Positions 17,663 to 22,425 of a stretch of 50,470 nucleotides of DNA are shown here, in pieces. The DNA is from a virus (lineage: Duplodnaviria; Caudoviricetes), in IMG/VR virus record IMGVR_UViG_3300025083_000060, positions 1 to 50,470 of that record; one strand, given 5' to 3'. Positions within the stretch are counted from its first letter, which is position 1. Every line of letters begins with the position of its first letter. A model generated the notes under the pieces. It was given only the letters and a program-made list of their open reading frames with translations. It had not been told where the DNA came from and did no database searches. Both the position numbers and the translations under genes were made by a program.

Positions 17663-18898
17663 CTACGCAGAATACTGCGCTCTAGCTCCATCTAACTCGC
17701 AGGGTATCTTACCATGCCAGCCACCTTTTAACTTGTTCTTAGCCAGTACAAGATAGCGCTGATTGTCTACCTCATCCTCATCCCCTAGCTCTGCCATTGA
17801 AGGGTTCTTAGATATAAGAATCATGAGGTCTGCCTCTGCAGCCTTGCCTGTTTTACTCCCTTCAAGCATAGACTGGTCTACGTTAATCCTATTCTCTGCT
17901 GCTGCAGACAATTGGGACATCCATATAATTGCTGTGTTGTATTGCTTTGCAATGTTACGTGCATGAATAGCCGCATCCTTTAGGTACACGTCTGACTTGT
18001 CACTGGTACGAGGTGCAAACTTATCACCCATGTCAAGTACCACAATGTCAGGCTTGTAGTTTTTAATAGCCGCCTCTACCCATACCATGTCTTTACCCGT
18101 ACTGTCGTACAGATCTATGTTATCTCTAACACGTTGGTATCTTGTCGAAGCTAAAGGAAAGTTATCTTTAACTTCTTCCATAGTCAGGCTGGTAGCAGCA
18201 GTAAGATAGCGAAAAGCTACACGTTCATACGCCTCTTCATTACAAAGAATAAGACAACGTGCACCCTGCTTCGCAAAACCATTAGGCCCTGCAATAAGAG
18301 ATGCATGAAAGCTTGTCTTACCTGTGTTAGGCCGTGCGCCTACAATTAAGAAGTGCCCACCACTAATACCCTCAACCTTACGGTGTAAGCTAGGGATGTT
18401 GAACTTCCACTGAGATTGTTTCTCGTTAGCCTTGAGCAGTGTCTCAATAGATATATCACAGAAATTTAAGTTAAGGCTTGGGGTAAAGTCATCCTCGTAA
18501 TCACTCAGTAGTTTTCTCAGTGGCTCAAGACTTTTCTGTGTACCATTAACATAATCAAAACCTATGTTGGCTACCTCTTCCCCTACCATCTGCTGAAAAA
18601 GTTTAGACAAAACTTCCTTGGCGATAGGCTTAGACATAGGTTCTTCTTTGCGGATCTTGTTAAAGATTTCCTTATATACTGTCTTGTTAGATGTAGTAAG
18701 TGTTGCGTTGGAAGAGAAGAACAAGCCCTCTACTTCCGACACAGATAGATCCTTATCATACTCCTGCATAGCCATCTCTACGGTGTGTTTAATCTTTCTA
18801 ACATCTTTCGTAAAGAGTTTGTCTGGGGTACGGATACCCTTATGTCCCTCATAAAATTCTTTATTCATGAGAGATCTTATGAGTGCTAATTCCATCAT
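17663..18898 (-). CDS. DnaB/gp4-like replicative helicase
   Basis: Walker A GARPNTGKT; VVLD; SQL; AEADL; KNK. Confidence 0.9.
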   Translation of the reverse strand: MMELALIRSLMNKEFYEGHKGIRTPDKLFTKDVRKIKHTVEMAMQEYDKDLSVSEVEGLFFSSNATLTTSNKTVYKEIFNKIRKEEPMSKPIAKEVLSKLFQQMVGEEVANIGFDYVNGTQKSLEPLRKLLSDYEDDFTPSLNLNFCDISIETLLKANEKQSQWKFNIPSLHRKVEGISGGHFLIVGARPNTGKTSFHASLIAGPNGFAKQGARCLILCNEEAYERVAFRYLTAATSLTMEEVKDNFPLASTRYQRVRDNIDLYDSTGKDMVWVEAAIKNYKPDIVVLDMGDKFAPRTSDKSDVYLKDAAIHARNIAKQYNTAIIWMSQLSAAAENRINVDQSMLEGSKTGKAAEADLMILISKNPSMAELGDEDEVDNQRYLVLAKNKLKGGWHGKIPCELDGARAQYSA

Positions 18899-19440
18899 AC
18901 TTTATTGGCCTCGCTTCTTTCTATGGCACGTTTACGTTCTTCATCAGTCATGTCTGATATAGATCTACTCTTTACCTTTTCAATAAGCTCTAATGCATTT
19001 TGCCATGAAAGCTTGAACCATTCTTTAACGTAGTCATTGGACATAGATTTAGCAAGGTCGTGTACATCTGACTCTGCCTTACGTCTGTCACTGAAATGGG
19101 CATACCCTCGTAGGTGAAAGTCTCTGAAGGGACTAGACGTTTGATATGCATTAACCCTATCCTCAACATCAATAGCCATACCAATCTTAACCCAGTCACG
19201 CCATGCAGGATTAGTCAGAGCATATACATAGCCTTCCTTGGTGTTAGAGTACTTACCTAACCCTTCAAAGGCTGCATCATTAAAAGATTTATATCGTCCC
19301 GGCTTATGTAAGTCATGCGTCTGTGGAATATACTTACCGTTGACCCACATACGGCTCTCATTTCTTTTACGCATAGCATCTGGGCTATCCTTGTAATACT
19401 TATCACGGCCTGTCGTATCGTTATGTTCTTTCTTATACAT
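18895..19440 (-). CDS. GIY-YIG superfamily (T5orf172/MUG113-like) protein
   Basis: GYVYALTNPAWRDWVKIGMA...RVNAYQTSSP...E...H...EWF. Confidence 0.8.
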   Translation of the reverse strand: MYKKEHNDTTGRDKYYKDSPDAMRKRNESRMWVNGKYIPQTHDLHKPGRYKSFNDAAFEGLGKYSNTKEGYVYALTNPAWRDWVKIGMAIDVEDRVNAYQTSSPFRDFHLRGYAHFSDRRKAESDVHDLAKSMSNDYVKEWFKLSWQNALELIEKVKSRSISDMTDEERKRAIERSEANKV

Positions 19441-19775: not shown

Positions 19776-19920
19776 TCACTCCTATACATGGTAACAAGAT
19801 AGACAGCTTGCAGTACTTAGGGTACTCATCATATGTCATAGCTATCAGCACGGGTGGTGCTGCTATAAGTAAAGCTACAATAGCTGACGCCTTGATTGCA
19901 CCATTGATGTTACCCCTCAT
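19765..19920 (-). CDS. small membrane protein, 51 aa (not in ORF track)
   Basis: MRGNINGAIKASAIVALLIAAPPVLIAM...; TAATG coupling with thyX stop. Confidence 0.65.
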   Translation of the reverse strand: MRGNINGAIKASAIVALLIAAPPVLIAMTYDEYPKYCKLSILLPCIGVNDE

Positions 19921-20588
19921 TAGTCATTCTCCCTTAATGATTCCCATGACACAGGAAATAATTTTACCATTACACGATCAATCTCCCATGCTACCTCTGC
20001 TGTCTCTGCTTGTGTGTCAGGCGCACAGCGAAGCTTACACATGTCAGCAAAGGCATCCAAGCTACCTGACCAGTACCACTCAGTCATCATGCTCTGTGGT
20101 AGTACCATACGTGCTTGCTCTGGACATACACCCTTCTCAAGCAACTCTTTGTAGTCGTGTAGACAAACTTTGTGACAACTCTCAAGTAATAGATCCATAT
20201 CCTCATCATACCACTCGCCAGTACTGCCTTGCTTCTTATCCTCGCTACGTCCACGCCAAGACTTAGGCACATAAAACTCAGGCTCACTATCCACATACCT
20301 ACGGCTAATCTCATTCCACCGTAGGAACTTATGCTTGACTAGCTGTCTAGCTACAAAGACTGGTGCCTTGATGTGGAAGCTGGCAAAGCAATGCCCAAAT
20401 GGGCTGATGTGCTTGTGATTGGCTAGGTATTGTATAAGCTTCTTATCCCTAACTTTCATGTGTTGCTTGAAGCTGTAAGCATCTGACTCTTCATAGTCCC
20501 ACTCACTCTCCTTGCCAAAGCTTACTCGTGCAGCATTGACTACAGTCAAGTCGCTACCCATGCTACCTTTATATGTTACTTCAATCAT
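19920..20588 (-). CDS. thyX: flavin-dependent thymidylate synthase
   Basis: VVNAARVSF, HISPFGH, VARQLVKH, NEISRRY, EQARMVLP, AQAET-type motifs. Confidence 0.93.
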   Translation of the reverse strand: MIEVTYKGSMGSDLTVVNAARVSFGKESEWDYEESDAYSFKQHMKVRDKKLIQYLANHKHISPFGHCFASFHIKAPVFVARQLVKHKFLRWNEISRRYVDSEPEFYVPKSWRGRSEDKKQGSTGEWYDEDMDLLLESCHKVCLHDYKELLEKGVCPEQARMVLPQSMMTEWYWSGSLDAFADMCKLRCAPDTQAETAEVAWEIDRVMVKLFPVSWESLREND

Positions 20589-20718
20589 TATCTTTACCTT
20601 TATGTTTTTCTTTTCTTTTAGTTACAGGTTTTTTCTTATCAGGTATAACCTGTTGTTTATACTTAGGCTGTCTTACATCCTTAGCCATAGGATTTTGTTT
20701 ATTATTAAACTTTATCAT
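20581..20718 (-). CDS. small basic protein, ArfA-like, 45 aa (not in ORF track)
   Basis: MIKFNNKQNPMAKDVRQPKYKQQVIPDKKKPVTKRKEKHKGKDND; ATGA overlap with primase stop. Confidence 0.7.
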   Translation of the reverse strand: MIKFNNKQNPMAKDVRQPKYKQQVIPDKKKPVTKRKEKHKGKDND

Positions 20719-21503
20719 AATAACATTTCCCTTAACCGCTTTACATCGGATTGTAATCTGTATTTGATGTCATCGTCAAGTCTAAAAGCTTGTGTTCGTA
20801 TGCCTGTCCATGCCTCTACCTCTCTCCTATACTGAAGTGTCTTGGTCATGGCATCAGGGTCTAACGCTATGATAACATTAGAAAATTCTCCTATGTGTTC
20901 CATGTGTTCATGCCCTAGTGACGTACCCATAATAGCCAAGCCTGTGACTTGGGGTAGAAGCTTAGCAACTGTGATAGCACTTATAACATCCTCGACTATA
21001 ACTGCTGTACCGTTTGGTTTACCTACTATCCTTTTGTATACACTAGCCTTTCCGGTATATCTGTACCACTTTGGTATAGCATTGTGCAATGCTCTGCCTA
21101 CCGCATCAATGATAGAACCTTTGTGTTTAATAGGAAACACAGCACGTTTCTCACTTACATCATATAAGACACGCTCGCCTTGTAGATCCCACTTATCTAG
21201 GAATGAATCAAGTAACGTGTATTCCCGGCCAACAGGTTCAACCACATACTCAGGTATTACCATACACTCAGGCTCAGGCTTAACGTATGCCTCTGCAGTA
21301 AGCTTAGCTTGTATCTCTGCTGCTGTCAGGTTGACATGCACTGCACCTCTAGATCTACAGCCTAGCTTGTAGCAGTTGTATATCATGGAGCCAGATCTAT
21401 TTACTACAGTAAATGTATTGGAGCCACGGCATGACGGACAGTCAGATCTGTGTGTCTCACCATCACCCAAACTTAATGACTTAACGTAATCACTTATCGT
21501 CAT
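20715..21503 (-). CDS. DNA primase (Zn finger + TOPRIM)
   Basis: CPSC...CYKLGC zinc-binding domain; IVEDVISA, ALDPDA TOPRIM motifs. Confidence 0.9.
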   Translation of the reverse strand: MTISDYVKSLSLGDGETHRSDCPSCRGSNTFTVVNRSGSMIYNCYKLGCRSRGAVHVNLTAAEIQAKLTAEAYVKPEPECMVIPEYVVEPVGREYTLLDSFLDKWDLQGERVLYDVSEKRAVFPIKHKGSIIDAVGRALHNAIPKWYRYTGKASVYKRIVGKPNGTAVIVEDVISAITVAKLLPQVTGLAIMGTSLGHEHMEHIGEFSNVIIALDPDAMTKTLQYRREVEAWTGIRTQAFRLDDDIKYRLQSDVKRLREMLL

Positions 21504-22425
21504 TGGATCTCCTTTGCGCTAATGCAGCAGACGCACCACTGAATGTGTTTACCAAGTAAGGCTTAACACTTTGGGGGTTGGTGTGTCCACTGACTTGCAT
21601 AATACCTGCCATGTCTACGCCTGACTCTACCATCTCTGTAATGCCAGTACGCCGTAAGTCTCGTGCTTGTAGCACAAAAGGTAATCCTGCAGCTTCCTTA
21701 ACTTGATTGACTAGCACATGTATCTCTTGATCGTCGTAAGGTGTGTGTGCCCCTGCTCTGGGGAGTACACGAGGCGCTACGTAGTCTTGGAAGTCAAAGT
21801 CTTCCTTCTGCTCTCGGAGCATCTGACACAAGCTTTCATCTGTAATAGGTAAGTGTACATCGGCCCTACGTTTACTCTGCTCTAAGTCTAGGCGCTTGGC
21901 ATCTAAGTCTAGGTTGTCCCACCTGAGGAGACGCATGTCACCTACACGCTGTGCCCACTCGTATGCCATGTGAACGATCAGGCCAACGCTACGCCACTTC
22001 CACTCAGAGTATGCGGTATCTAAGAAGAGACGCACCTGATCCTTAGTCCATTTAATTTTACGAGGCTTATCCGTTGTACGTTGTAACAATGTCACAGGGT
22101 TAGAGAGTATAGCCTCATGTCGTATGGATGTATTGAATACAATACTGAGACACGTAGCCATATAGTTAGAGCTACGTACCCCATGCACGAGAAGCCACCT
22201 GTCATATGCGGTAGTCACATGTTTGAAACGTACATCCATAAGCTTGATGTTACCTAACTGCTTACCCTTTTGCACAGGGGTATCGCATACCTTAGATAGG
22301 TACATCATGTAATCTTTCTGAGTACGAGGACGCAATGCAGCAAACTTAGGTGTGTGCATATAGAAGTCACATGCTTGCTTTATTGTGTGCTTACCTTTTA
22401 GTTCTACTACATTGCGTTTCGCCAT
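21490..22425 (-). CDS. int: tyrosine recombinase / integrase
   Basis: QRVGD (R), QSKR (K), RDLRRT, SGH, PYL (Y) catalytic pattern. Confidence 0.9.
   Translation of the reverse strand: MAKRNVVELKGKHTIKQACDFYMHTPKFAALRPRTQKDYMMYLSKVCDTPVQKGKQLGNIKLMDVRFKHVTTAYDRWLLVHGVRSSNYMATCLSIVFNTSIRHEAILSNPVTLLQRTTDKPRKIKWTKDQVRLFLDTAYSEWKWRSVGLIVHMAYEWAQRVGDMRLLRWDNLDLDAKRLDLEQSKRRADVHLPITDESLCQMLREQKEDFDFQDYVAPRVLPRAGAHTPYDDQEIHVLVNQVKEAAGLPFVLQARDLRRTGITEMVESGVDMAGIMQVSGHTNPQSVKPYLVNTFSGASAALAQRRSNDDK

Follow-up and report, generated by a model that had tools for sequence, protein, structure and literature searches.

A 45-codon gene between primase and thyX of an HMO-2011-type phage encodes a probable minimal relative of the ribosome rescue factor ArfA

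The small gene and its locus

The current study concerns the IMG/VR record IMGVR_UViG_3300025083_000060, a viral contig of 50,470 bases with a completeness estimate of 91% that was analyzed over its whole length (the window), and in particular a gene of 45 codons on its minus strand (20581..20718) that encodes a basic peptide of the DUF7230 type with similarity to the ribosome rescue factor ArfA. An earlier note on this DNA had drawn attention to an unannotated open reading frame (ORF) for a protein of 45 amino acids (aa) in this position, coupled between primase and thyX, and its location is confirmed by the ORF listing and by the overlaps at both ends. The ATG start codon (20718-20716) and the TGA stop codon of the upstream primase-like gene (20717-20715) share 4 nucleotides (nt) in the sequence ATGA (20715..20718, minus strand), and the TGA stop codon of the small gene (20583-20581) falls within thyX (ATG at 20588-20586), so that these two genes overlap by 8 nt; the shared stretch, ATGATTGA (20581..20588, minus strand), comprises the last codons and the stop of the former and the start of the latter. 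A putative Shine-Dalgarno-like sequence, AAGGGA (20728..20733, minus strand), is present 9 nt 5' of the ATG within the 3' end of the primase gene. The translated product is MIKFNNKQNPMAKDVRQPKYKQQVIPDKKKPVTKRKEKHKGKDND, and the description of the gene is based on the ORF listing, its ATG start, Pfam, homologues, the ratio of nonsynonymous to synonymous polymorphism (pN/pS), and hhalign.

Both neighbors are encoded on the same strand. The primase-like gene upstream (20715..21503; 262 aa) matches PHROG 47, DNA primase (E = 4.8e-17), and shows weak Pfam matches to Toprim and DnaG, and the thyX gene downstream (19920..20588; 222 aa) was identified by Pfam Thy1 (E = 4.1e-46) and PHROG 85 (E = 1.9e-66). 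A six-frame search showed that the window holds one stand-alone copy of the small gene and no second one. Neither an arfA-style internal hairpin nor a terminator-like site was detected on the minus strand of the ORF (fold z-score of -0.6), and no Rfam family and, with ARAGORN, no tRNA or transfer-messenger RNA (tmRNA) were found in the window.

Identities of the window capsid protein are 80.9% with its counterpart in roseophage CRP-9, 80.7% with the CRP-13 protein, and 72.5% with the one from the SAR116 phage HMO-2011, and genes for a terminase, portal protein, DNA polymerase, DnaB-like helicase, ribonucleotide reductase, integrase, and ThyX are also present. The phage is accordingly classified as an HMO-2011-type podophage, and the capsid similarity suggests that its host is probably an alphaproteobacterium. 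A megablast search of positions 19900-21600 against phage records retrieved no match. In the available text of a survey of 15,259 genomes, arfA is given for 0 of 2,376 Alphaproteobacteria, arfB for 2,022, and ssrA for 2,293 of them (PMC11633108). In contrast to arfA, the small gene of the window is phage-borne, and its likely hosts belong to the class in which that survey found no arfA.

The small gene has a stable place in the replication module. Of 80 fetched loci, 72 in which the small ORF was located by its pattern were compared, and the other 8, confirmed by tblastn only, were left out. In all 72 loci, the nearest labeled neighbors are located on the strand of the small ORF. The upstream neighbor is a primase in 29, an integrase in 22, and unlabeled in 21 loci, and downstream thyX (28 loci), T5orf172 (23), DnaB (7), small conserved ORFs (11), or no neighbor (3) were found. 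The T5orf172 gene or the integrase can therefore directly adjoin the small gene in relatives, i.e., the module is shuffled around a constant small gene. In the window itself, the replication module also contains a gene with a T5orf172/MUG113 domain (18895-19440, minus strand) and a tyrosine integrase gene (21490-22425, minus strand).

Conservation of the gene and assignment to DUF7230

The 45-codon ORF is a real gene. A word-index search retrieved 71 homologues of 34 to 72 aa (E <= 0.01), many of which carry a precomputed PF23876 tag, including homologues at 90% identity. The identical 45-aa protein is recorded from 86 contigs, the longest of which comprises 56,904 bases, and a relative is encoded in 496 of 583 candidate stretches from IMG/VR viral contigs. 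Selection was assessed with the window and 74 of the 80 fetched loci, which have an ungapped 33-codon core (50 distinct sequences at the nucleotide level and 34 at the protein level). The pooled pN/pS of the 50 unique nucleotide sequences is 0.146 over this core, and the median ratio of nonsynonymous to synonymous substitution rates (dN/dS) is 0.072 for the 810 of 1,225 pairs that are unsaturated, a rough value because dS is high. Within the core, 13 first, 11 second, and 33 third codon positions are variable, i.e., every third position varies. A12, K19, Y20, P26, K28-K30, P31, R35, K36, K38, H39, and K40 show no variation in an alignment of 35 sequences, and conservation of at least 90% is seen there for P10, R16, Q17, P18, D27, and G41.

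In Pfam, the window protein is closest to DUF7230 (PF23876), a family to which no function is assigned there; the match spans positions 2-37 of a profile of 42 positions and, with 22 bits (E = 1.8e-4), does not reach the cut-off of 27 bits. DUF7230 is matched at E <= 10 by each of the 35 aligned members, with a best E value of 9.5e-8. The nearest ESM-Atlas clusters of the window protein likewise belong to DUF7230 (scores of 0.95 and 0.92), and an ArfA cluster that ranks 25th (score, 0.89; the tool draws its line at 0.9) serves as a lead only. The features of the DUF7230 type, i.e., a small size of about 35 to 70 aa, a core of the form NP.A..LR.PKY..V, and a basic tail, are all present. The window protein is placed in the DUF7230 branch and not in ArfA as defined by Pfam. 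No NCBIfam family was found for it at E <= 10, and its PHROGs matches, to phrog_1359 (E = 0.0035) and phrog_2701 (E = 0.021), are weak and concern families without a known function.

An exhaustive HMMER search with a profile hidden Markov model (HMM) of the family against 1.84 billion representatives retrieved 198 proteins at E <= 0.001, the best 150 of which were used. After three tandem-repeat proteins and six proteins of more than 90 aa had been dropped, a broad alignment of 142 sequences was left. P[KR][YF] is present in 121 and RK.KH in 71 of these 142 sequences. The loop is of the window type, P[DN]KKK, in 64 sequences, of the KGKGS type in 4, and an ArfA-like Tyr-x-Arg-Lys without the glycines in 21, and the remaining 53 are outside these three patterns. 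The excluded tandem-repeat proteins P0195, P0203, and P0279 (1346, 645, and 363 aa) owe their retrieval to weak matches summed over 21, 9, and 6 stretches, respectively, and appear to be unrelated false positives.

A reading as a ribosomal protein was considered and dropped. The best matches of the family profile in the PDB are uL16 proteins with E values of 0.9 to 4.5, which are not significant. The label "ribosomal protein L44E" of one JGI homologue and the matches of 2 of the 35 sequences to Ribosomal_L44 (best E = 0.0089) were taken to reflect composition.

Relationship to ArfA

ArfA (YhdL; PF03889) of E. coli, an alternative ribosome rescue factor dependent on release factor 2, is considered to belong to gamma- and some betaproteobacteria. 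For comparison, 401 Pseudomonadota genomes were scanned, 37 of which exceeded the Pfam ArfA cut-off, and 28 distinct ArfA domains were collected. The stretch of E. coli ArfA that the earlier note had quoted corresponds to residues 14-45 of the arfA product in NC_000913.3, and the proposed alignment with one gap was returned by BLASTP with 13 of 39 identities (E = 0.001 in a single comparison); both sequences have in common N, P, Y/F, K/R, Q, V, KK, RK, and KH. The note had also suggested a comparison with the ArfA profile. With the 35 close relatives, hhalign gave a probability of 46.8% (P = 2e-4) against the 28 cellular ArfAs. With a 138-row family alignment from which four members passing the ArfA cut-off had been removed, it gave 84.8% (P = 6.5e-6), and with the full 142 rows including these four, 88.5%. 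When the alignment was trimmed to 46 core columns and the columns were shuffled, which preserves the composition, none of 200 shuffles reached the real hhalign score of 22.6 (mean, 7.5; standard deviation, 1.8; maximum, 13.6), and the reversed alignment scored 9.4.

The four bridging proteins connect both families. P0236, P0240, P0325, and P0332 are retrieved by the family profile at library-wide E values of 2.9e-6 to 3.9e-4, have KGKGS-type loops, and pass the Pfam ArfA cut-off of 25.5 bits with 41.5, 33.8, 28.1, and 35.1 bits, respectively, and in each of them the ArfA match covers the same stretch as the family-profile match. A further protein, P0307, is below the cut-off on both models. 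Seen from the other side, the sole match of the DUF7230 model at E <= 10 on the 4.6-Mb chromosome of E. coli K-12 is located inside arfA (12.6 bits), and the only match in a second Escherichia genome, for which 24 candidates were scored, is likewise inside arfA; these matches hold the same information as the pairwise P values. Since the shuffles fail to reach the real score and the bridging proteins pass the ArfA cut-off, the similarity to ArfA goes beyond the lysine/arginine bias that the earlier note had named in its refuting condition.

Four negative results weigh against a common origin. At E <= 10, Pfam ArfA is matched by neither the window protein nor any of the 35 aligned sequences, and DUF7230 by not one of the 28 cellular ArfAs. 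Moreover, the ORF goes undetected at E <= 100 when the window is searched in six frames with an HMM built from these 28 proteins, and a PDB search with the family profile retrieves no ArfA chain at E <= 10. The similarity could in principle be due to chance or to convergence of two short lysine-rich peptides, in which case DUF7230 would have nothing to do with ArfA. Both peptides are about 40 residues long and highly basic, HMM-to-sequence searches yield no cross-matches, the narrow alignment reaches less than half of the hhalign probability scale, and the target family was chosen after the fact. Such an explanation is nevertheless extremely unlikely and was already disfavored by the data at hand, given that shuffling of columns with the composition kept abolishes the score, that intermediates match both profiles over one stretch, that arfA is singled out from 4.6 Mb of E. 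coli DNA, and that genes of the KGKGSY and the PDKKKP type occur within one phage group (see below). DUF7230 and ArfA very probably form one superfamily, and the window protein is best classified as a minimal, phage-borne member of it.

Relatives in cultured phages

A tblastn search with the window ORF against 50,697 phage records retrieved 7 records at E <= 10, namely, roseophages DSS3P8, V10, CRP-13, CRP-9, and CRP-212, Rhodobacter phage RcXuper, and pelagiphage HTVC027P (gp30). In DSS3P8, V10, and RcXuper, the match falls on genes annotated as hypothetical; the loci inspected were those of DSS3P8 and RcXuper. In the three CRP phages, it corresponds to unannotated ORFs in another frame inside a gene of the structural module: an ArfA-like/DUF7230 ORF in CRP-13 (L001:2992-3117; 13.3 bits), a second one in CRP-9 that passes the DUF7230 cut-off (L201:583-726; 30.2 bits), and an ArfA-like ORF of 41 aa with the motif KGKGSY in CRP-212 that passes the Pfam ArfA cut-off (L202:604-729; 33.3 bits). 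The CRP-13 and CRP-9 homologues are located inside the acidic N-terminal linker of a scaffold-like gene upstream of the coat gene, and that of CRP-212 is found inside the acidic C-terminal part of gp38. In each case, the lysine-rich frame runs over a glutamate-rich linker of the containing gene, and these ORFs are possibly overprinted genes.

The gp30 protein of HTVC027P is called an ArfA-domain protein in the accessible part of its description, where high expression is stated for 3 h and 12 to 15 h after infection (PMC12753301); its Pfam ArfA score is 20.2 bits, i.e., under the cut-off. Like gp30 and the CRP-212 ORF, which are phage-encoded proteins within a range of 41 to 58 aa, the window protein has an NP.AK..RTPKY core, whereas those two have a KGKGS-like loop and the window protein has PDKKKP. 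CRP-212 and the window phage are both members of the HMO-2011-type group. Accordingly, a single phage group holds both loop types (KGKGSY and PDKKKP), which argues for a shared job of the two forms.

A subgroup of the pelagiphage type, comprising HTVC027P gp30 (L115:2441-2617), P0319, and P0328, shows a conserved N-terminal extension, W-D-G-R-S-R-P ... I-F, in front of the NP.AK core. This extension is distinct from the minidomain that ArfA has at its N terminus.

Anatomy of the peptide and proposed function

The available excerpt of a structural study (PMC5378476) describes how ArfA acts on the ribosome together with release factor 2 (RF2). Pro23 stacks on A1492/A1493, and the backbone of the strand 25-29 pairs with RF2 residues 213-217. 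The tail (aa 31-48) is located in the mRNA tunnel, where a truncation at N47 is tolerated and one after M40 is not. Ordering of the N-terminal minidomain (aa 2-16) accompanies the open, active RF2, and a hydrophobic patch of L19, L24, and F25 binds Trp319 of RF2. In the A18T variant, the ribosome and RF2 are bound and release is blocked. The basic and KGKGS residues are reported not to be individually essential for ArfA activity, as stated in the accessible text of the ArfT study (PMC6299226).

Several of these elements have a predicted counterpart in the window protein. Its conserved core, N9-I25 (20644..20694, minus strand), aligns with ArfA N14-E30, which includes the end of a helix, in BLASTP and hhalign, and its basic tail, P26-D45 (20584..20643, minus strand), aligns with the mRNA-tunnel segment 31-51; the common pattern is N..L..P.[FY][KR]Q.V in the core and KK...RK.KH in the tail. 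P18, conserved in at least 90% of the relatives, would correspond to Pro23, the invariant Y20 to F25, and Y20-K-Q-Q-V24 to residues 25-29. R35, K36, K38, and H39 align with R41, K42, K44, and H45 of the tunnel tail, in which half of the residues of the window protein (10 of 20) are K, R, or H, and with six residues after H39 the tail extends beyond the equivalent of N47.

The gene also differs from arfA in its control. It has neither an RNase III-type hairpin nor a C-terminal hydrophobic extension, and it ends with an ordinary TGA stop codon. The non-stop-mRNA control known from arfA is hence absent.

From this anatomy and the relationship to ArfA, the window peptide is best read as a putative phage-supplied, release-factor-dependent ribosome rescue factor, a function for and against which we see about equally good grounds. 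The peptide would be made from the transcript of the replication module, apparently via translational coupling between primase and thyX, and because of the ordinary stop codon and the lack of an internal hairpin its synthesis should be constitutive during infection and not confined to an overload of tmRNA. On a 30S subunit with an empty A site, i.e., on a cut or stop-less mRNA, the lysine-rich tail P26-D45 would enter the mRNA tunnel, and the core N9-I25 with its P-K-Y-K-x-x-V motif would be placed in the decoding center and offer a strand for the docking of a class-I release factor. By analogy with ArfA, this factor would be RF2, and release factor 1 (RF1) may also be used. The docked factor could then hydrolyze the peptidyl-tRNA and return the ribosome to the pool available for phage messages. 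The presumed benefit is the recycling of ribosomes stranded on cut or stop-less mRNAs in a host without ArfA. Ribosome binding, release-factor recruitment, and the advantage for the phage are suggested here by analogy. Of the earlier proposal of an ArfA-like rescue factor or mimic, the relationship to ArfA is upheld by profiles and intermediates, and its functional part is a reading from homology and anatomy.

Several departures from ArfA, as well as the basis of the host assignment, count against a rescue function. As the earlier note had correctly observed, KGKGSY is not conserved. All 28 cellular ArfAs sampled have an unvaried KGKGS, in place of which the window protein has KKKPV and one residue fewer, and PDKKKP is aligned at this position. 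The minidomain (aa 2-16) is missing, with just eight variable residues in front of N9. In the hydrophobic patch, L19 is replaced by D14 and L24 by the invariant K19, so that the aromatic residue alone is kept (Y20), and A18 aligns with K13. Furthermore, the host is deduced from capsid similarity.

These changes would fit an ArfA-derived ribosome binder that does not promote release, i.e., a mimic that blocks or competes with tmRNA-SmpB or ArfB, or that parks ribosomes. The tunnel tail and the A-site core are kept in the window protein, and the parts for RF2 activation are missing or changed, i.e., there is no minidomain, the positions of L19, L24, and A18 hold D, an invariant K, and K, and KGKGS is lost; the A18T variant of ArfA, with binding of the ribosome and RF2 but no release, provides a precedent in the excerpt at hand (PMC5378476). 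We nevertheless consider a non-releasing binder rather unlikely. A short N terminus together with a canonical KGKGSY and a score above the ArfA cut-off in sister phages and family members suggests a shared activity, and an R or K is present at the position of L24 in some cellular members of the ArfA family, e.g., in L111. Blocked rescue would moreover tie up ribosomes that the phage needs, and the 40-aa ArfT, as described in the available text, shows that very short factors can recruit release factors (PMC6299226).

The tail composition is also compatible with a general nucleic-acid-binding basic peptide, in which the descent from ArfA would be real and the role at the ribosome would be gone, with phage DNA, RNA, or the virion as conceivable targets. 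Half of the tail is K, R, or H, and AlphaFold2 predicts, from the 35-sequence alignment, an extended chain without secondary structure (mean predicted local distance difference test score, 69.1; predicted template modeling score, 0.17). In addition, the homologues of CRP-9, CRP-13, and CRP-212 are located inside structural-module genes, and P0282, P0229, and P0290 read as fusions. This explanation appears distinctly unlikely. Conservation is complete or almost complete at the non-basic residues N9, P10, A12, P18, Y20, and P26-D27, and the part that aligns with the decoding-center segment of ArfA is the non-basic core; the gene resides in the replication module in 72 of the 72 loci found by pattern. 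An extended model is as expected for a peptide that folds only on its target, and ArfA, too, is disordered when off the ribosome.

Going beyond the single phage, the rescue function could be extended to the whole of DUF7230. The family may, tentatively, represent a phage-spread and mechanistically distinct minimal class of rescue factors that needs neither KGKGS nor the minidomain, perhaps uses RF1 as well as RF2, and serves in Alphaproteobacteria with tmRNA and ArfB only, a proposal that we rate as somewhat doubtful. Phages would thereby reclaim ribosomes after host mRNA decay or an mRNA-cutting defense, and the activity would be valuable enough for sister phages to keep the gene overprinted in acidic linkers. 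A functional analogue is known from Francisella tularensis, whose ArfT (40 aa), according to the accessible portion of its description, recruits RF1 or RF2, has a basic C-terminal stretch instead of KGKGS, and may, as proposed there, detect an mRNA channel that is empty (PMC6299226). ArfT and the window protein are both very short and have a basic C terminus without a canonical KGKGS, but ArfT is chromosomally encoded, and the parallel is one of function only.

Novelty and consequences

Phage genes annotated as ArfA are already in print, to judge from the available parts of the respective papers, for HTVC027P (PMC12753301) and, with g10, for Citromicrobium phage RXM (PMC8953757). DUF7230 was not mentioned in the literature searched, which did not extend to supplements. 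New in the current study is the description of an ArfA-like phage peptide that has neither KGKGS nor a minidomain. A large family of "unknown function," common in marine phages, very probably turns out to be a relative of ArfA. If the peptide is active, phages would carry their own ribosome rescue factor into hosts that lack this pathway, and ribosome recycling would join the steps that are taken over by abundant ocean phages. A natural version of 45 residues would also indicate which parts of ArfA are truly needed for sensing of the tunnel and recruitment of the release factor.

Further observations on the family

Longer proteins that hold the motif (P0210, P0239, P0277, P0282, P0300, P0310, P0272, and P0287) have no informative partner domain; the scan found only DUF6197 in one of them and a weak zinc ribbon in another. 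P0282 reads as an in-frame fusion of a DUF7230 peptide with a gp38-like C terminus, and in P0229 and P0290 the peptide seems to be joined in frame to scaffold-like sequence. The three proteins may be real fusions, frameshifts, or gene-calling artifacts, and if they are real, the peptide could belong to a virion protein.

A sigma-70-like site (TTGACG, an 18-nt spacer, and TACAAT; 10 of 12 matches) is present at 20750-20779 on the minus strand within the 3' end of the primase gene, about 30 nt 5' of the ATG of the small gene. It may be due to chance, since 3 such sites were counted in the region compared with a mean of 5.7 in shuffles.

On bacterial chromosomes, DUF7230 exceeds its cut-off in at least 2 of the 401 Pseudomonadota genomes, compared with 37 of 401 for ArfA; the first-pass genome search with PF23876 misses the ORF of the window itself (22 bits by hmmscan), and its negatives are accordingly weak. 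The rare chromosomal copies are located at L117:1480-1710 and L118:1435-1884 (minus strand). One chromosomal copy encodes 76 aa, is extended at the C terminus, and is flanked by a Fic-like gene on one side and an Mrr-like restriction gene on the other.

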